Positions 10,348 to 38,782 of a stretch of DNA of 64,000 nt are shown here, one piece after another. Position 1 is the first letter of the stretch. The number at the start of each line of letters is the position of its first letter. The notes under the pieces were generated by a model. It searched no databases. It was not told the DNA's origin and saw only the letters and a program-made list of their open reading frames with translations. Origin of the DNA: Candidatus Berkelbacteria bacterium CG10_big_fil_rev_8_21_14_0_10_43_13 (lineage in GTDB: Bacteria > Patescibacteriota > UBA1384 > XYA2-FULL-43-10 > 1-14-0-10-43-13); contig PEZW01000018.1 in NCBI GenBank assembly GCA_002773985.1, positions 34,240-98,239 on the forward strand, in the 5' to 3' direction. The position numbers and the translations under genes were made by a program.

Positions 10348-10380
10348 TGGTGGACCCTAGGAGACTCGAACTCCTGACCT
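10348..10380 (-). pseudogene. 3' fragment of an older tRNA-Ala (T-arm, acceptor 3' strand, CCA)
   Basis: Reverse complement aggtcaggagttcgagtctcctagggtccacca. Confidence 0.85.
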
Positions 10381-10414
10381 AGCCGATAGATCGGCTCGCG
10401 AATTTGTTTTTATT

Positions 10415-10491
10415 TGGTGGACCTGACCGGGCTTGAACCGGTGACCTCCTCGCTGCCAGCGAGGCGCTCTAGCCAACTGAGCTACAGGCCC
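10415..10491 (-). tRNA. tRNA-Ala(GGC)
   Basis: Full cloverleaf gggcctg...caggtcc-acca; anticodon arm cctcg-ctGGCag-cgagg. Confidence 0.96.
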
Positions 10492-10511
10492 ATTAAAGAA
10501 AAACAAATGGC

Positions 10512-10530
10512 CCAACTAAGCTAAGGGCCC
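10512..10530 (-). pseudogene. 5' fragment of the older tRNA-Ala
   Basis: gggcccttagcttagttgg; GGGCCCT pairs with AGGGTCC of the 10348-10380 fragment. Confidence 0.75.
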
Positions 10531-25258: not shown

Positions 25259-26713
25259 TTAGTCTCCCGAAAGTAAAATTTTAAGCGCATCAAATACATT
25301 TGTCAAATCTGCCTTCGAATGGACGATTTCTTGCAGAAGTGTCTCACCTGATTTATGTTTTGTTTCAGCCGAGATAATAATAAATGGAAGATGAGACTGT
25401 CTCTGCTTCTCGTTCACCTGCTCAATCTTAGTATCTGCACCACCTTCCGCCCCACCGAAAGCCGAGCAAAAGACCACATAGCCAGAAGCGGCCAAGGCAT
25501 CCTTGACGATGCGACCAAGTGATTTATCCAGTAGTTTGACTTCGGTGACACACTCAGCAAACAAGCCCGCCTGACTAAATCGGTAAAGCGAGGGGAAATT
25601 AACGGTGATAAAGTCACACTGCTTCTGAGCAATCACCTGCAACGCCAGGTCAGTAATTTCCTCAGTAGTGCTGGTTTGCTTTTTTAGATGCGATTCCGAT
25701 CTAACTAGAGGGACTTTAATTTTTACGTGCCCAAGACCATCAAGATAATAGGTGTCTAGATTGTGCAAATTGTCCTGATCTGTCACTAGAGCCTGGTGAA
25801 GTCCTTGTTCATATAAAATGTTGGAAAGATATGACTGCAGATCCTTTTGAAAAAAATAATTAACTTTGGTGCGTAAATCGAATGGAAATTCTGAAATTGC
25901 CCAAAAATCCAAAAATGAAACGGCGCGCGAGGTTTTCTCGTTTGCAGACATAATGATTTCACGCAAAACATCAGTAAGTTGTGGAGAGGGTACAGACAAA
26001 AGAAACGGTAAATCAAAGCTGCTTATTTTGGGATTATGACGCAATTTGATAATAGTCGGGCTCATTTCAGCTGGTGTTTCTGACTTTTGCAATGCCAGCG
26101 CTTGCTTTGCAGACAACGCTGTCTGAGCTTTGCCAGACAAAAGCATTTTTACAATCAAAGCAGTGTTGTGTTTTTTCTTGTTTCCGCAGCCACTCAGACT
26201 AGCGATTTGACCATATTCAATTATTTTTAGACAATCTTCAATGGCAGATAAGCAGACAGCCGCATCTGCTTTTGTCGACACAGAGGAATCAAAGAACAGG
26301 TGAACGAAAAGACCAATAATAGAATTTCTTTTGGCGAACCTAGCTATTTCAGATAAGTTTTCAACTATTTCATCTAGATTATAGTTTGAAACCTGGGCGA
26401 GTATCTGGATTGAAGCGTTGTTTCGCTTTGCCGCATCTAAACTCGAGAGAAACCGCTGATTGTGTGACAGCGATTCCTGTGTCAAACGCACCCTGCTTTT
26501 GTTTGGTTGGCCGGTCGCTATCTCGGTATATCCAGTGTAGCAATCATCGTAAACACCTCTTTTTGATTGCAAAACAAGATGGCGATAGTCCTGCCAATAT
26601 TCTGAAAAAATAGCTGTTTGAGCTGCTGTAATTGCATTTCCCTGCCAGCTTGTGCTCAAGCCAAAACCGTCAGCAATTATTAATACAATAGGTTTTTTTT
26701 CTTTTTGTGTCAT
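25259..26713 (-). CDS. Degenerate iPGM paralog (probable pseudoenzyme)
   Basis: PIVLIIADGFG...GNAI start, collinear with iPGM, but catalytic motifs are lost. Confidence 0.75.
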   Translation of the reverse strand: MTQKEKKPIVLIIADGFGLSTSWQGNAITAAQTAIFSEYWQDYRHLVLQSKRGVYDDCYTGYTEIATGQPNKSRVRLTQESLSHNQRFLSSLDAAKRNNASIQILAQVSNYNLDEIVENLSEIARFAKRNSIIGLFVHLFFDSSVSTKADAAVCLSAIEDCLKIIEYGQIASLSGCGNKKKHNTALIVKMLLSGKAQTALSAKQALALQKSETPAEMSPTIIKLRHNPKISSFDLPFLLSVPSPQLTDVLREIIMSANEKTSRAVSFLDFWAISEFPFDLRTKVNYFFQKDLQSYLSNILYEQGLHQALVTDQDNLHNLDTYYLDGLGHVKIKVPLVRSESHLKKQTSTTEEITDLALQVIAQKQCDFITVNFPSLYRFSQAGLFAECVTEVKLLDKSLGRIVKDALAASGYVVFCSAFGGAEGGADTKIEQVNEKQRQSHLPFIIISAETKHKSGETLLQEIVHSKADLTNVFDALKILLSGD

Positions 26714-26714
26714 A

Positions 26715-28322
26715 TTAGTGCAGAACCAATGATTCAGCTTTTGTTTCACTTTTAAAGGGTATCTTCATCAGGTCCAATACTGTCGGGACAATGTTTGACA
26801 GGGAACCTCCACTTTTGAGCTTTGTTTTTGCGATTTGTTGATCGGCACTGACAATGATAAAAGGGACGGGATTTGTTGTGTGCTCTGTATCAGGCTCACC
26901 AGTGCGAGGATTGACCATCTGCTCAGCATTTCCATGATCAGCAAAGACAAAAACTGTGCCATTTTTCTGGAGCACAGTATTTAATATTTCTCCTAGACAC
27001 TTGTCAACAAATTCCACCGCTTTGACGGCGGCTTTCATATTACCAGTGTGCCCGACCATATCAGCGTTGGCAAAATTTACGATAAAAGTATCGTAGATAT
27101 TTTTATTGATTGCCTGTAGCAGTGTGTCTGTGACACCCTGTGCTGACATTTCCGGTTTCAAATCATATGTTGGCACATCGCGAGGGGAAGGAACCATTTT
27201 CCAATCTTCGCCAGGAAATGGCTTTTCACGGCCACCGTTCAGAAAATAAGTAACGTGGGCGTATTTTTCCGTTTCTGCTGTATGATATTGACGAAGATTA
27301 TTGAGCGATAATTGCTCAGCTAAAGGACTCATCACCTGTTGTGGTTCAAAGACATGATTTCCAAGCGTCGTGTCCCCATGCATGACAAAGGAAGCAAAAT
27401 AAAGATTTTTGAGCATCTTTCGGCCTGGCAACTTATCTCTCATGTCTGGTTCCAAAAAAGCATTTGTCAGCTCCCTTGCTCGATCAGCGCGATAATTGAA
27501 AAATACAACGCTGTCGTTGTCAGAGATAAGCTCGGCATGATTGTCTTTATTGATAATCACGCTTGGTTCGATAAATTCGTCGGTCATACCACGAGCATAT
27601 GATTTAGTGAAAATTTCACCGGCAGAACTAAATTTTGTGCCTTTACCTAGAGTCAATAAGTCATACGCCTCAGCGATTCGCTCCCAGCGATTATCGCGAT
27701 CCATCGCATAAAATCGGCCAATTATTGTCGAGATCTGGCCAACTCCGATCTCTCGCATCTGATTTTCAAGCTCCGCCAGTGTCTCAATACCAGTCATCGG
27801 CTCTGAATCACGACCATCAGTAAAAATATGCAAATAGACATTGCTAAAATTCATTTTTTTGCACAATCTCAAAATAGCATAAATATGGGAAATTTGACTG
27901 TGAGTACCAGTCTTTGAGAGAAGTCCCATCAAGTGCAGACGAGCATGGTTCTGCTGAGCTGAGTGGATAGCTCGATTCAAAACCTCATTTTTCTCGAAAC
28001 TGCCGTCTTCAATAAATTTATCAATAATTGATTGATCCTGATAAACCACGTGGCCAGCACCAATGTTTAGGTGTCCAGCCTCAGAATTTCCAGGGGATTC
28101 AGCCGGCAAACCAACCGCAGTTCCAGAAGCCTGGAGTGTTGTGTGCGGACACTTTTTTGTAATAGTGTTGTAGTTCTTTACCTCAGCAATACTGAGAGCA
28201 TTGCCACCCCAAACCGGAGCCACGCCCCAACCGTCTAATATAATCAAACCAAAAATATTCTTCTTTGTATTCGTGCCTAAAACCAAAATCCCTCCAAAAT
28301 CGTTTGCGATTTTGTCCTCCAT
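26715..28322 (-). CDS. gpmI: 2,3-bisphosphoglycerate-independent phosphoglycerate mutase
   Basis: ILDGWG, GNSEAGH, DGRD, GRFYAMDRD, ETEKYAHVT, DMVGHTG, ADHGNAE. Confidence 0.96.
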   Translation of the reverse strand: MEDKIANDFGGILVLGTNTKKNIFGLIILDGWGVAPVWGGNALSIAEVKNYNTITKKCPHTTLQASGTAVGLPAESPGNSEAGHLNIGAGHVVYQDQSIIDKFIEDGSFEKNEVLNRAIHSAQQNHARLHLMGLLSKTGTHSQISHIYAILRLCKKMNFSNVYLHIFTDGRDSEPMTGIETLAELENQMREIGVGQISTIIGRFYAMDRDNRWERIAEAYDLLTLGKGTKFSSAGEIFTKSYARGMTDEFIEPSVIINKDNHAELISDNDSVVFFNYRADRARELTNAFLEPDMRDKLPGRKMLKNLYFASFVMHGDTTLGNHVFEPQQVMSPLAEQLSLNNLRQYHTAETEKYAHVTYFLNGGREKPFPGEDWKMVPSPRDVPTYDLKPEMSAQGVTDTLLQAINKNIYDTFIVNFANADMVGHTGNMKAAVKAVEFVDKCLGEILNTVLQKNGTVFVFADHGNAEQMVNPRTGEPDTEHTTNPVPFIIVSADQQIAKTKLKSGGSLSNIVPTVLDLMKIPFKSETKAESLVLH

Positions 28323-28625: not shown

Positions 28626-29219
28626 ATGAACATCAAAAAACTAACACCTCAAAATTTTGAACAGGTTGTGACTGAAGCCGTAAATATTATCAAATCTGGC
28701 GGTCTTGTCATCGCACCTTTTGATACTGTCTATGGCATCATTTGCGATCCGAAAAATGACGAGGCTGTCAAAAAGATTTTTGATCTGAAGAAAAGACCAC
28801 TCGACAAAACTATTGGCCTGGCCGTCACTTCAATTCCAGCACTAGAATTGATTGCGGAAAACACTCATCCAGATTTTATAAAATCTCATATTTTCGGTCC
28901 GTATACATTTATATTGAAATCAAAGAAAAATAATGGCATTTCCAAATATTGCCAAAAAGAGGGGACTGTCGCAGTTAGAATTCCAAATTCGGAGCTAATT
29001 CTGACAATTGCTAAAAAGTCAGATTATATCCTCGCTCAAACCTCAGCCAATCTCACCGGCAAGCCAACATCTGCCTCGGTCGAAGAAATAACTGCCCAAT
29101 TTGAACCAAAAGTGTTGGACGCAATCGGATTAATTATCGACGGCGGCAATATCAAAAACCCCTCTCCATCACAAATTTTCGATCTAACAGGCGACAAGCC
29201 GATTGAGATTGCGAGATAA
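28626..29219 (+). CDS. tsaC: Threonylcarbamoyl-AMP synthase (Sua5/YwlC/TsaC)
   Basis: PFDTVYG, KKRP, VAVRIP, TSANLTG. Confidence 0.92.
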   Translation: MNIKKLTPQNFEQVVTEAVNIIKSGGLVIAPFDTVYGIICDPKNDEAVKKIFDLKKRPLDKTIGLAVTSIPALELIAENTHPDFIKSHIFGPYTFILKSKKNNGISKYCQKEGTVAVRIPNSELILTIAKKSDYILAQTSANLTGKPTSASVEEITAQFEPKVLDAIGLIIDGGNIKNPSPSQIFDLTGDKPIEIAR

Positions 29220-29245
29220 GTTATTTTCTGCTATTATTTGGTCAT

Positions 29246-29288
29246 GCCGAAGTGCCTGCCTGCCGGCAGGCAGGGCGGAATTGGTATA
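29246..29288 (+). pseudogene. 5' fragment of an older tRNA-Leu, interrupted by a 20-bp palindrome
   Basis: gccgaagtg[cctgcctgccggcaggcagg]gcggaattggtata, preceded by TTGCGA-17-TATTAT. Confidence 0.85.
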
Positions 29289-29299
29289 ACCTATTATAT

Positions 29300-29539
29300 A
29301 TGTATTTTGTCTATGTATTAAAAAGTACAAAAAGGAATTATCATTATATTGGTATTAGCAATAATTTATCTCGAAGAATAAATCAACACAACAAGGGTTA
29401 CAACAAAACAACTAAGCCTTACACACCTTTTAAATTAATTTACAGTGAAAAGTACCCTGACCGTGTCTCAGCCAGAACTAGAGAAAAACAATTAAAAAGT
29501 GGTTGCGGTCGTGAATTTATTCGAAAAATAGATATTTAA
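29300..29539 (+). CDS. Minimal stand-alone GIY-YIG nuclease (79 aa)
   Basis: YFVYVLKS...YIG.S.NL.RR..QHN.G...A..RE..LK motif set. Confidence 0.92.
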   Translation: MYFVYVLKSTKRNYHYIGISNNLSRRINQHNKGYNKTTKPYTPFKLIYSEKYPDRVSARTREKQLKSGCGREFIRKIDI

Positions 29540-29569
29540 ATAATTTGATTAGCGTCTTGTTCATTTTGG

Positions 29570-29655
29570 GCCGCGGTGGCGGAATTGGTATACGCGTACG
29601 ACTCAAAATCGTATTCCCTCAAGGAATGTGGGTTCGATTCCCACCCGCGGCACCA
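29570..29655 (+). tRNA. tRNA-Leu(CAA)
   Basis: gccgcgg...ccgcggc-acca; anticodon arm tacga-ctCAAaa-tcgta; long variable arm. Confidence 0.96.
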
Positions 29656-29668
29656 AATGAATAAGAAT

Positions 29669-29769
29669 CGCACGACCTGTCTGCCGACAGGCAGGCTCAA
29701 AATCGTGTGGCCTCGTGCCTTATGGGTCTGCCTGTCGGTAGACAGGTTCAAATCCCACCTTCGGTACCA
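29669..29769 (+). pseudogene. 3' part of the older tRNA-Leu(CAA), interrupted by two 20-bp palindromes
   Basis: cgcacga[20 bp]ctcaaaatcgtgtggcctcgtgccttatggg[20 bp]ttcaaatcccaccttcggtacca; CTTCGGT pairs with GCCGAAG at 29246. Confidence 0.88.
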
Positions 29770-29796
29770 AAAAAAACAGCTTAATTGCTGTTTTTT
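29769..29796 (+). terminator. Intrinsic terminator
   Basis: aaaaaacagc-ttaatt-gctgtttttt hairpin with U-run after the tRNA locus. Confidence 0.7.
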
Positions 29797-29864: not shown

Positions 29865-30230
29865 TCAGGGCGACTCCTTGTCGCCCTGCAACTTCTTTGT
29901 CTCCTTCGAGGCCTGTTGTTCCGCGACGATCTTCATTCGCGGGCTATCCTTCACAGCCTCAGCCTCCGCAGCCTGTTGCTCAGCAACGATCCGCATCCGC
30001 AGACTATCGCTGAGATCAGCCGCATTACTCTCCTCACCGGCACGTTGTTCGGCGACGACCTCCGCCGCCGACATGTTCGGCTCCGGATCGGGCCGAACCG
30101 ACTCGCTTGGCTGCACCGCCACAGACTGTGCAGGTTTGTAGCCGTAGTCGTCGACTTTGTGGCAACCGACGAGAATTGAAAACCCGAGGGATGCCACCAC
30201 AATTGCCAACACATCGGAAAACTCTTCCAC
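29865..30230 (-). CDS. GC-rich orphan, putative lipoprotein with internal repeats
   Basis: Hydrophobic stretch ending ILVGC; repeated (I/V)VAEQ(Q/R)A; upstream TTGACA-17-TATAAA; downstream GC hairpin. Confidence 0.55.
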   Translation of the reverse strand: MEEFSDVLAIVVASLGFSILVGCHKVDDYGYKPAQSVAVQPSESVRPDPEPNMSAAEVVAEQRAGEESNAADLSDSLRMRIVAEQQAAEAEAVKDSPRMKIVAEQQASKETKKLQGDKESP

Positions 30231-30296
30231 TGTATGACTCCCTTTCCCTTGACATGTTTATAACATTTTTGACTGTGTGTGTCAACATTTTTGGGA

Positions 30297-30495
30297 GTAA
30301 CTGCTCACCCATCTTTTCATTTCGACCCCGTGAGCTCTGTCGAACGGTCGGAGAAATCTGACACGAAGTGTCATTCCCTCGGCTAGCTCGGGACAGGCTC
30401 TGAGCTTGTCGAAGGATCTTTTCAAGAAACAAGATCTCTCCACCCTCGACGAACCGAGGAGTCGAGATGACAATATGAAGTGAGTTAGTAATTAC
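30297..30495. repeat. Composite nested palindromic element (GTAACTGCTCA shell, TCAT...ATGACA core)
   Basis: Shares termini with the 42550 and 48640 elements; contains tgagcttgtcgaagg-type sub-hairpins. Confidence 0.75.
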
Positions 30496-30633
30496 TTTTC
30501 TCTGAGAACACAAAAAAAACCGGCATCCGAATGGACAACCGATTACATTATTTTCTTTTTAATTTTGCTGTGTCGGCGAGGGTCCCCCGAAGGGTACCCC
30601 CGCCGACGAGCTTTCATCACGACGCCACTCCTG

Positions 30634-31089
30634 TTATTTCTCCGCCGCCACGGGGCGGAGAGAGGCGGCCATCTCCTTGGCCGCTTCCTCCGCTGTCGGG
30701 ACCCTCTGCACCAGAGGTGACGAAGGGTCGACCGCCGAATCAACCGGCAACAGCAAGCTGTCACCGGAGGACAGCTGGCCGTTGCTCGACGACCGCCTGT
30801 TAATGCGGTCGAGCTCAGCCTCCCAGTGCCGCTTGTCAGCGCCTTTCGGCGCAAACAAAGTGGCGATCGAGTGATACGTGTCGCCGTCCTGGACGGCGTA
30901 GTACCATCGCGTCGGCTCAGCAACAGCGGCACGGACCGCTACCGCACGCCGATTGCCATCATCGACGGCGCGGGTGATGAACGCCGCCGCGATGGCAACG
31001 ATCACGATCACTAGTACCAGCCACGCCGCAACCTCTTTCAAGGTCATCGGCTCGGCCGGTCGATCAAACGCTTTCACGTTTTTGCCCAT
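30634..31089 (-). CDS. GC-rich membrane-anchored LysM-domain protein
   Basis: TM helix then YAVQDGDTYHSIA...IN...LSSGDSLLLP; ATG at 31089 after GGAG. Confidence 0.8.
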   Translation of the reverse strand: MGKNVKAFDRPAEPMTLKEVAAWLVLVIVIVAIAAAFITRAVDDGNRRAVAVRAAVAEPTRWYYAVQDGDTYHSIATLFAPKGADKRHWEAELDRINRRSSSNGQLSSGDSLLLPVDSAVDPSSPLVQRVPTAEEAAKEMAASLRPVAAEK

Positions 31090-31386
31090 CTTCAGGGCTC
31101 CTTTTTCGGGCAGGATTGGCAGAATTGCCAAAATTATACTAACAGATTTGATAGTATTTGTCAATATATAAGCACAAAATTATGTTCAATTTAGTATTTT
31201 GTCAGACCCAAACTGTATAAACACCGGAATTCGCGCCATTTTCTAGTCGAAAGCTTTAGTCTTTTAGCCATCTTTTCAGCTTTATCTCAGCCAATATGGT
31301 ATAATATCAACGTAGATCCAAGTTCACAGTACCGAGTACCGAGCGCCCCCTAATACGTTATACGAGATACCTAATACGAAATTTGT

Positions 31387-37186: not shown

Positions 37187-38055
37187 TCTCGAGCTATTTT
37201 GGCGGATTACTGATAATGATTTCGATTTACTTGATTTTGGCACTGTCACTTCAACTCGCACTTGGCTTTTGTGGTTTGTTTAATCTCGGGTTTGTCGGCT
37301 TCTACGCTATCGGGGCTTATGCTTCCGCTCTTTTGGCTTTGTCCGGCCAACCGTTTTGGTTTTGCTTGCTCACCGCTGCTCTGGTACCAACAATCTTTGC
37401 TTATATACTTTCGACCGCAACCAATAAATTAAAAGGGGATTATCTCGCACTGGCAACGATGGGGTTTTCATTTGTGATCTACGCTGTCACTCTCAACTGG
37501 ATTGGACTGACCAAGGGTCCACTTGGACTACCCGGGATTCCGCGACCACAATTTTGGGGTATAGATTTCAACAACGACACAAACTTTTTAATTCTCTCTG
37601 CTCTGATCGCAATTTTAACTTATTTAATTCTACACAAAATTGCTTCATCGCCGTTTGGTAAAACACTCGAAGCCATCAGAGATGACGAATTGGCAGCCAA
37701 GAGCTTAGGTAAAAAGACAGCCACTGCCAAAAGCCTGGCCTTGATGATTTCAGCTTTTTTTGCTGGCATCGCCGGCTGCTTACTGGCATCTTATCTTTCA
37801 TACATCGATCCAACCTCTTTTATGTTTGTCAACTTGATTCCTATCCTAACCATTGTCGTTATCGGCGGACTTGCCTCTCTGCCCGGTACTGTCTTTGCAA
37901 CTATAATAATTGTCTTACTTCCTGAGCCGCTCCGCTTCATCGGCTTGCCATCATCACTGATCGGTCCGGGACGCCAATTGCTCTATGCCCTGTTTTTACT
38001 TTTAATACTTCTTTACAAACCAAAGGGGTTTTATGGAAAGGTTGAACTTGAGTAA
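37183..38055 (+). CDS. livM: Branched-chain amino acid ABC permease
   Basis: LKGDYLALAT, SPFG..L.AIRDDE.AA, KPKG. Confidence 0.92.
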   Translation: MISSYFGGLLIMISIYLILALSLQLALGFCGLFNLGFVGFYAIGAYASALLALSGQPFWFCLLTAALVPTIFAYILSTATNKLKGDYLALATMGFSFVIYAVTLNWIGLTKGPLGLPGIPRPQFWGIDFNNDTNFLILSALIAILTYLILHKIASSPFGKTLEAIRDDELAAKSLGKKTATAKSLALMISAFFAGIAGCLLASYLSYIDPTSFMFVNLIPILTIVVIGGLASLPGTVFATIIIVLLPEPLRFIGLPSSLIGPGRQLLYALFLLLILLYKPKGFYGKVELE

Positions 38056-38782
38056 TATTTTGGAAATAAAAAATCTTAAGCGGTCATTTGGCGGCGTCAA
38101 AGCGGTTGACGGCTGTAGTTTTGAAATTGAGTCCGGCAAAATTATTGCCATGATAGGTCCAAATGGTTCAGGCAAGACAACCGTCTTTAATTTGATTTCC
38201 GGAATTTTATCTGTAGACTCAGGCAAAATAATCCTTGACGGATCCAATATCACTGATAATTCAGTTGAAGAAAGAGCCCGGTTGGGTATCTCGAGAATGT
38301 ATCAGCAATCGCGGCTGTTCAAAAATCTAACCGTCAAGGAAAATCTGTTGTTGGTGCTCGATCAGAGAAATTTTAATTTCTTTGCCAGGTCTAAGCCATC
38401 GACAGAACAGACAGAACAAATAAATGAAATTTTGGATTTATTTGAACTCAACAAAAAAATAAATATGCCGGTCAAAACTCTCAGCTTCGGTCAACGCCGA
38501 CTGATTGAAATTGCCCGAACATATCTCTTGCCACACAAAATTATGCTTCTCGATGAGCCGGTCGCCGGTGTTACGCCACATTTGCGAAACGAAATTTCAA
38601 AATTCTTAACCAAGCTTAAGGATGAGGGAGAGACTATTCTAATTATTGAACATGATATGAACTTTGTGTACAATTTAGTTGATGAGGTGGTGGTCATGGA
38701 TGCAGGTAAAATAATCGCACATGGCAATCCGGTTGAGATCGAGAAAAATCAAAAAGTCAAAGAAGCTTATCTCGGTGCATAA
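38033..38782 (+). CDS. livG: Branched-chain amino acid ABC ATPase
   Basis: FGGVKAVD, GPNGSGKTT, LSFGQRR, EHDM, VKEAYLG. Confidence 0.93.
   Translation: MERLNLSNILEIKNLKRSFGGVKAVDGCSFEIESGKIIAMIGPNGSGKTTVFNLISGILSVDSGKIILDGSNITDNSVEERARLGISRMYQQSRLFKNLTVKENLLLVLDQRNFNFFARSKPSTEQTEQINEILDLFELNKKINMPVKTLSFGQRRLIEIARTYLLPHKIMLLDEPVAGVTPHLRNEISKFLTKLKDEGETILIIEHDMNFVYNLVDEVVVMDAGKIIAHGNPVEIEKNQKVKEAYLGA

Follow-up and report, generated by a model that had tools for sequence, protein, structure and literature searches.

tRNA genes are usually viewed as stable, vertically inherited core genes. What, then, is to be made of a tRNA-Leu(CAA) gene that stands, together with a gene for a very small nuclease, inside the remains of another tRNA-Leu(CAA) gene, and how could such an arrangement have arisen? 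We examined such a locus in a 64,000 nt stretch of DNA (the window, meaning the whole stretch that was analysed) from a Candidatus Berkelbacteria bacterium, here termed the source genome, and compared it with loci from relatives. Its anatomy is that of a native tRNA-Leu(CAA) gene, now dead, into which a very small GIY-YIG gene and a foreign, hairpin-clamped tRNA-Leu(CAA) are set (Table 1). This type of locus is real and recurrent. It is apparently undescribed in print, since literature searches, conducted largely outside subscription journals, returned no description of such a nuclease-plus-nested-tRNA cassette.

Table 1. Coordinates of the nested tRNA-Leu(CAA) locus, its surroundings and a second nest in the window.
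Feature	Position	Strand	Evidence or remark
tsaC / Sua5-YrdC gene	28626..29219	+	PF01300, E 3e-40; last codons overlap promoter-like site
Promoter-like site of old tRNA gene	29209..29237	+	Promoter scan, weak alone; position
5′ piece of old tRNA-Leu(CAA): acceptor strand, D-stem, D-loop	29246..29288	+	Split by palindrome 1
Palindrome 1, perfect 20-mer	29255..29274	.	tRNA positions 9/10; also in L175
Inserted 380-bp block	29289..29668	+	Enters between D-loop and D-stem (canonical 21/22) with loss of 2 target bases
79-aa single-domain GIY-YIG nuclease gene	29300..29539	+	PF01541, E 1e-17; 29% GC
Left clamp arm	29555..29569	+	Complement of trailer; last bases complement CCA end
Intact inner tRNA-Leu(CAA)	29570..29655	+	ARAGORN and Rfam; different allele
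Right clamp arm, from CCA end	29655..29666	+	End of tract shared with L175
3′ piece of old tRNA, anticodon arm to CCA	29669..29769	+	Split by palindromes 2 and 3
Palindrome 2, imperfect	29676..29695	.	5′ edge of old anticodon loop
Palindrome 3, imperfect, reversed family member	29727..29746	.	5′ edge of old T-loop
Terminator-like 10-bp hairpin after old CCA end	29771..29796	+	Hairpin/inverted-repeat search
Second nest: tRNA-Ala(GGC) in other Ala allele, without nuclease	10348..10530	-
Intact tRNA-Ala(GGC)	10415-10491	-	12-bp repeat clamp
Old Ala 5′ piece	10512-10530	-
Old Ala 3′ piece	10348-10380	-

Removal by coordinate of the three 20-mers and of the block 29289-29668 leaves an 84-nt sequence that ARAGORN calls as a tRNA-Leu(CAA). 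The rebuilt gene matches the intact 86-nt tRNA-Leu(CAA) adjoining tsaC in a relative of the same genus (G001; locus L002) at 82 of its 84 bases, and the comparison identifies the 2 bases lost at the join as the first two of the 3′ D-stem strand. The 5′ piece (29246-29288) has the same sequence as in the intact G001 gene. Because this intact counterpart stands in a member of the same genus, the outer gene is the old allele of the lineage. The original prediction had rebuilt an outer tRNA-Leu(CAA) with about 2 nt missing and had looked to relatives for an uninterrupted copy, and both points hold. Furthermore, the three 20-bp palindromes that it described are all present, although only the first is perfect (20/20, 16/20 and 12/20 self-complementary bases for palindromes 1, 2 and 3). 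In G001 itself, the intact old allele (L002 2090-2445) points the other way relative to tsaC, and a copy of the allele's 3′ end lies closer to that gene, a layout suggestive of a local inversion at the tRNA.

The inserted block had been described as an integrase-free and intron-less unit holding a 79-aa GIY-YIG ORF and an intact, divergent tRNA-Leu(CAA), and the searches returned the same picture. The nuclease gene is the sole ORF of the block, in which no integrase gene is present, and Rfam finds only tRNAs in the window, with no group I intron ribozyme core. No target duplication accompanies the insertion at 29289-29668. Both inner acceptor strands are those of the new allele and both outer strands those of the old one. 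The outer pieces are decayed, as they carry three further insertions in this genome and a large deletion in L175, a locus discussed below. Other accounts of this layout were considered and rejected: a spliced outer tRNA, because the outer pieces are decayed; tandem duplication of the resident gene, because 16 positions separate the two alleles and it is the outer one that matches G001; and single-crossover integration of a circle, because it would yield two hybrid tRNAs.

The upstream gene tsaC is a conserved neighbour of this tRNA, as tRNA-Leu(CAA) is found in 26 of the 30 tsaC loci of relatives. A nuclease gene occurs in 2 of the same 30 loci, namely that of this genome and L013. The prediction also had the old promoter and terminator still bracketing the locus. 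The promoter-like site (29209-29237) is appropriately positioned, motifs resembling it lie upstream of tRNA-Leu genes of the family, and 25 of the 26 bases at 29220-29245 are common to L175. However, it is one of 3 sites found where 1.4 are expected by chance, and the hairpin at 29771-29796 was not called by the terminator scan. Both elements are therefore assigned by position, and the promoter also by the family motifs.

The source genome (0.84 Mb, 91% complete, 43 tRNAs) is present in groundwater and aquifer runs. Logan contigs from all four of the runs examined, two of which may be the genome's own source, exhibit 0 differences at the locus. Specifically, the left junction is spanned in runs X1-X3, the right junction in all four (X1-X4) and the join between the GIY-YIG gene and the inner tRNA in X1, X2 and X4. 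An assembly chimera of tRNA-Leu loci from co-occurring organisms might be suspected because no single contig covers the whole stretch and the assembly graph breaks in the conserved core of the inner tRNA. This possibility is extremely improbable, given that both junctions are spanned without differences in several runs, including one that dates from another year, that the two acceptor strands, like the two clamp arms, pair with each other over the contig break, and that L175 has the same layout with differences of its own. The locus is not a chimera, and the layout stands; a concern that had been raised along with the original prediction is thereby met. The four runs yielded no empty allele; the joints compared had sides of about 20 bases and were probably those of other organisms.

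The inner tRNA, with 16 of 86 positions unlike those of the G001 gene, is the sole Leu(CAA) gene found among the 43 tRNAs of the source genome. Its anticodon arm is matched in 2 of the 44 genomes of the order, the source genome and G036, and the G036 gene differs elsewhere and has no nuclease nearby. There is no match to this arm in viral contigs, and a donor of the inner allele was not found among family alleles, the best of which score 80/86. The inner and old alleles are identical at positions 7-27, a stretch of 21 bases with 17 to the left and 4 to the right of the break.

A 12-bp inverted repeat had been noticed around the inner tRNA (29555-29566/29655-29666), and it is confirmed with 11 Watson-Crick pairs and one G-T. 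In the predicted fold of the window, the last leader bases pair with the CCA end, and this clamp scores 10 on an in-register repeat measure. In-register repeats of at least 11 bp flank 14 of 171 tRNAs in five genomes (all 43 of the source genome and 23-39 per relative, from fetched loci with enough flank), compared with 0 of 2000 shuffled pairs. The clamp arms continue the acceptor stem. The register is 3-5 in 20 of the 29 tRNAs that have an encoded CCA and a repeat of at least 9 bp (exactly 4 in 13), compared with 39/210 expected by chance. A G stands opposite C75 in 10 of 20 clamped tRNAs and in 15 of 184 unclamped ones.

Clamps are associated with tRNA remnants. In a wider set of 285 tRNAs, repeats of at least 11 bp occur in 11 of the 58 with a 3′ remnant and in 9 of the 227 without (p 0.0004), and within the 171 the corresponding values are 6/35 and 8/136 (p 0.04), where kin included in both comparisons are not independent. 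Clamps at plain tRNAs, without any remnant, number 3 in 109. The arm sequences differ from case to case, and because they are not common to different cases the arms are not transposase-binding ends. Two loci (L292 and L324) have clamps of 20-23 bp around tRNA-Asp with neither remnants nor nuclease, and the two paired changes that separate these clamps between genera fit either re-copying or selection on pre-tRNA pairing.

Fold-back copying would be the simplest source of the clamp, by analogy with the template switching of quasi-palindromes. That process is described as perfecting or extending inverted repeats by fold-back copying, which fits the in-register arms, although the cited account presents it as a source of point mutations and not of gene insertion or replacement (PMC7202029). 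A different view is that the clamp is a selected RNA feature, in which leader-trailer pairing allows folding and processing of the inner tRNA from a precursor that also contains competing pieces and the nuclease message. Nests would then arise by any route and survive if clamped. The enrichment of clamps where remnants exist, the paired changes on both arms of homologous clamps and the small loop that the arms leave beside C74 and the discriminator are consistent with this proposal. [quoted passage not shown] Selection on RNA pairing also accounts for the clamp only, and not for the nuclease, the palindromes or the transfer described below. It is compatible with the explanation that we favour, but as the principal explanation of the locus it is very unlikely.

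The 79-aa nuclease carries Tyr5, Tyr16, Arg, His30 and Glu62. Its domain spans residues 1-67, leaving no DNA-binding extension, and the protein scores far below the cut-off of TIGR01453. By sequence, the nearest solved structures are PDB 1zg2, 1ywl, 6seh and 4xlg, all weak matches (E 0.001-0.3). These represent UPF0213/YhbQ-like proteins and SLX1, an enzyme that cuts branched DNA by structure, and none is described as tRNA-linked or mobile in the accounts available. Among viral contigs there were 13 word matches to the nuclease, 0 of which were confirmed as relatives.

Relatives of this nuclease reside at tRNA genes. The source genome yields 12 tblastn matches, 10 of which lie within 220 nt of a tRNA gene, compared with 3.2% of random places. 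Among metagenome loci, 72 of 80 lie within 300 nt of an ARAGORN tRNA; these are the best 80 of 167 relatives, collected by words of the query peptide, and kin among them are not independent. Both counts bear out the predicted tie between GIY-YIG homologues and tRNA genes. Most commonly a 5′ fragment is followed by the nuclease gene and then by the intact tRNA. The nuclease genes usually adjoin a copy of the same allele that they split, the fragment having the first 9 bases of the intact copy in 38 of 54 GIY-YIG cassettes. Two loci (L035 and L211) have nuclease cassettes before tRNA-Asn genes with long anticodon-loop insertions, which we take to be intron-like. In L036, the nuclease gene runs with its final codons and stop into the left clamp arm, and a 37-base target duplication surrounds the block.

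On a quick tree of 125 proteins, the query falls in a clade of 13 (SH-aLRT 96) in which 11 members adjoin tRNA-Leu genes with four different anticodons. Furthermore, tRNA type is clustered on a tree of 118 proteins, with 24 changes compared with 48.8 after shuffling (0/200). The trees (quick and FastTree) use 77 columns, have many open forks and represent a sample drawn by query words.

Do these observations indicate a homing endonuclease and its resistant partner? The original prediction was of one homing cassette whose double-strand endonuclease destroys the old gene, with the inner tRNA as a cleavage-resistant replacement. In its favour, the phage T4 enzyme SegB is described as cutting tRNA genes and as driving the inheritance of its own region (PMC2330249). 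The present cassette has moved recently as a whole, and a long recognition site could discriminate between alleles that differ at 16 of 86 positions. However, the alleles do not differ at positions 7-27 around the break, L013 has an inner-type, clamped allele that is itself broken at the same place, and the same 5′ end is kept in most cassettes. These three points speak against resistance as such. The model also has to contend with a protein that lacks the DNA-binding domain of SegB and with modules that occur apart, and we regard it as quite improbable. The spare copy is better read as rescue rather than immunity; the phage that carries SegB likewise retains cleavable sites (PMC2330249).

Evidence for movement comes from L175, which has the same nest at tsaC. 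The two TsaC proteins are 84% identical, and 64 of 165 same-residue codons differ (39% synonymous divergence). In contrast, 2 of 72 same-residue codons differ in the nuclease gene (3%), and the inner tRNAs have 1 difference in 86. The near-identical tract has a sharp left edge within the final codons of tsaC and extends to the end of the right clamp arm. Palindrome 1 is common to both loci, and L175 has its own second palindrome and a shortened 3′ piece. Because L175 shares palindrome 1 and not the rest, palindromes 2 and 3, or their loss, are later than the sharing of the cassette. The L175 nuclease carries changes and a frameshift near its end. On this comparison, the cassette, including its dead 5′ piece, appears to have been shared recently between diverged lineages. 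The tract agrees with non-reciprocal transfer at the cognate locus, and neither direction nor drive can be read from it.

The argument for recent transfer draws on one pair for Leu and one for Phe, the latter being a Phe nest that is 89% identical to that of G017 over 238 nt, non-coding sequence included, at a tsaC identity of 42%. Three relatives (G001, G010 and G019) keep the old Phe allele intact. The nest (G000 contig C5, about 25530-25755; L288) is shared with genus g17 down to a second insertion in the dead 3′ piece, and its clamp arms look like halves of a palindrome family.

Nests also occur without the nuclease. Both a 5′ and a 3′ remnant were flagged at 13 of the 171 tRNAs of the five genomes, and 9 of these 13 have no GIY-YIG gene upstream. 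The clear nests of the source genome besides Leu are Ala(GGC), Phe(GAA) and Trp(CCA); the first lies in the window (Table 1), and its old 5′ end matches the intact allele of G019. Nuclease-free nests stand even at the tsaC Leu site (L022, L088 and L150). Junctions vary, ranging from the 2-base loss at this locus to 35-45-base duplications (L013, L036). The predicted homing-like cassette is thus sustained as regards recent movement between diverged lineages, but because nuclease-free nests are commoner and are found at this very site, the nuclease and the replacement tRNA are not supported as one obligatory unit.

Searches for a double 3′ end, which is a narrow pattern, returned the source genome only, 1 of 401 genomes of the phylum. 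Among 185,579 species the pattern gave 113 loci, mostly plain 3′ duplications or tandem genes. Those with a repeat of at least 8 bp, a 5′ fragment or a nuclease were examined, and 3 nests were found among them; 33 of the 113 had short flanks. A separate observation concerns G000 contig C22 17907-18621, where two different tRNA-Val(CAC) genes lie 560 bases apart.

The palindromes likewise favour tRNA genes. Among 54 distinct contexts, many of which represent related events, 34 rejoin to tRNA sequence, and 17 of these 34 (one ambiguous) lie at the D-loop/D-stem border, the entry site of the block. The block at 29289-29668 therefore entered at the commonest palindrome site. Most of the remaining palindromes lie at tRNA positions 9/10, 15-17, 31/32 and 53/54. 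There are, then, three separable modules, namely 20-bp palindromes, clamped tRNAs and nuclease genes, that enter tRNA genes at stem-loop borders. In Trp, Cys and Leu nests (G000 contig C24, about 37960-38200; L295; L309, Cys; L088), a palindromic element seems to hold the clamped tRNA in its loop, between its two arms.

Separable modules might be no more than passengers. According to this explanation, no nuclease drives the process; tRNA genes would capture DNA, using short homology at one end and an illegitimate fold-back join at the other, and nuclease genes, clamped tRNAs and palindromes would spread by ordinary recombination and drift. The 17 identical bases to the left of the break could have served as an anchor, and the absence of a nuclease gene from most nests, the variable junctions and the altered L175 nuclease are all in keeping with passive capture. 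Left unexplained are the location of about 90% of the sampled nuclease relatives at tRNA genes, the clades that track tRNA type and the clustering of insertions at stem-loop borders. We therefore consider passive capture unlikely.

We lean, by a small measure, towards an explanation that combines nicking of single-stranded tRNA-gene cloverleafs by the nuclease family, hairpin patching and homing-like spread via the dead halves. A nuclease of this family, acting in cis or in trans, would nick, at the D-loop/D-stem border, a single-stranded tRNA gene folded as a cloverleaf, and the nick would be patched with hairpin DNA. The clamp would form by fold-back copying nucleated on the acceptor stem. 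The only events to survive would be those leaving an intact tRNA, such that the spare copy rescues the host and resistance is not needed. The promoter, the 5′ piece and the 3′ piece could then act as homology arms for homing-like conversion, and the promoter-like site would now drive the fragment, the nuclease gene and the inner tRNA as one transcript. New palindromes would continue to insert into tRNA sequence and would last in dead pieces alone. The unit is likely to be a selfish cassette, one that spreads by invading tRNA genes and brings a spare copy with it.

Two published activities provide precedents. SsnA is described as a single-domain GIY-YIG protein that cuts single-stranded DNA beside a hairpin (PMC11893778), and template switching is described as a process that perfects inverted repeats (PMC7202029). 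We infer cutting, strand state, joining and drive from the arrangement of the loci, and likewise a role for the nuclease in nests that have no nuclease gene in cis. Several points count against this explanation. A hydrolytic nuclease has no means of joining DNA on its own, and the proposed joining lacks an enzyme. Clamps also occur where there is no remnant, the four runs gave no empty allele, and the double 3′ end was matched in a single one of the 401 genomes of the phylum. The nuclease gene is absent in cis from 9 of 13 nests, no ARAGORN tRNA is near 2 of the 12 copies in the source genome and 8 of the 80 metagenome loci, and clamps may be selected at the RNA level. A bolder formulation is that of recombinase-free mobile DNA, in which GIY-YIG nucleases specific for tRNA type read single-stranded cloverleafs and splice in hairpin-closed DNA, be it palindromes, clamped tRNAs or their own gene. 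We advance this idea only tentatively and doubt it more than we believe it.

Among known systems, the cassette would work most like SegB homing, the DNA-binding domain excepted. The gene of SegB in phage T4 likewise has no intron, encodes a GIY-YIG protein and stands among tRNA genes, with whose precursors it is co-transcribed, and the enzyme is reported to target a conserved tRNA motif and to spread itself and neighbouring tRNA genes (PMC2330249), as this cassette might also do. The phage enzyme differs in having a C-terminal DNA-binding part, in cutting double-stranded DNA at the tRNA gene 3′ end by a T-loop motif and in acting between phage tRNA genes (PMC2330249). In contrast, the protein of the cassette described here consists of the nuclease alone (79 aa), and its gene interrupts a chromosomal tRNA gene at the D-loop, together with a nested spare copy. 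Compared with free-standing GIY-YIG homing endonucleases of the SegB type, it has the free-standing gene without intron or intein and lacks the C-terminal DNA-binding domain. We place the cassette, as a variant, with free-standing tRNA-targeting nuclease elements; that it represents a categorically new hairpin-splicing system is conceivable, though rather doubtful.

The Ssn family (the cd10448 clade; SsnA with its NTS/SRM hairpin repeats) resembles the present case in its small single-domain GIY-YIG protein (<150 aa) and short hairpin repeats, and the catalytic Tyr, Tyr and Glu lie at 6/17/64 in SsnA and at 5/16/62 here, as compared by position only (PMC11893778). Its authors liken the gene-plus-repeat layout to a mobile element, and the main text of their paper makes no mention of tRNA (PMC11893778). 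The 20-bp palindrome family has another sequence than the Ssn repeats, and a loose SRM-like pattern found no repeat within 200 nt of the 79-aa gene. Two GIY-YIG genes do lie among SRM-like hairpin repeats (G000 contigs C24 306-539 and C27 7232-7429) and are candidates for true Ssn family members; they group apart from the 79-aa protein on the quick tree, whose sequences do not include SsnA. The SRM-like label is unclustered on the tree, with 7 changes for 7 rows, and is therefore a loose label.

Integrative elements at tRNA genes also target a tRNA, keep the gene function and leave a tRNA fragment, as they are described (PMC11476347). Measured against that description, the present insertion has no integrase, is 380 bp long and lies in the D-loop of the broken gene instead of at its 3′ end; the two old halves, both dead, enclose a whole different allele. 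Because dead old halves flank a whole different allele, the locus has no single-crossover att origin. The att-like direct repeats (attL/attR) and restored hybrid gene of such elements were not found at the locus, where the inner strands are new allele, the outer strands are old allele and 2 bases are lost. Group I tRNA introns differ as well, there being no Rfam match and no spliceable exons. MITEs have conserved terminal inverted repeats and a target-site duplication, whereas here the arms differ from case to case and no target is duplicated.

At least 4 of the 43 tRNA genes of the source genome (Leu, Ala, Phe and Trp) are replacements nested in a displaced allele, and two of these cassettes (Leu and Phe) look recently shared between diverged lineages. 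If the recombinase-free reading is true, ultra-small bacteria have their tRNA genes overwritten time and again by foreign alleles, and the mobile unit is the tRNA gene itself. If it is true that the nucleases recognize folded single-stranded tRNA genes by type, they would be among the smallest sequence- or structure-specific nucleases and would extend the Ssn finding. The locus offers a ready substrate pair, comprising an old and a new allele with a known break. It also serves as a warning that tRNA counts and 'att' calls at tRNA ends can mislead in such genomes.

Several further loci are of interest in their own right. On G000 contig C22 (41874-42459), a tRNA-Glu(TTC) has a leader that is an inverted copy of its own 3′ end and trailer, and a nuclease gene lies between it and a probable nest at tRNA-Lys(CTT). 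Right after the Leu locus, the window contains two GC-rich ORFs (29865-31164, minus strand; 121 and 176 aa) without a Pfam match, which are not present at the corresponding place in L175. Upstream, two adjoining ORFs (25259-28322, minus strand; 496 and 535 aa) resemble by eye what are presumably paralogous phosphoglycerate mutases, one of them degenerate.
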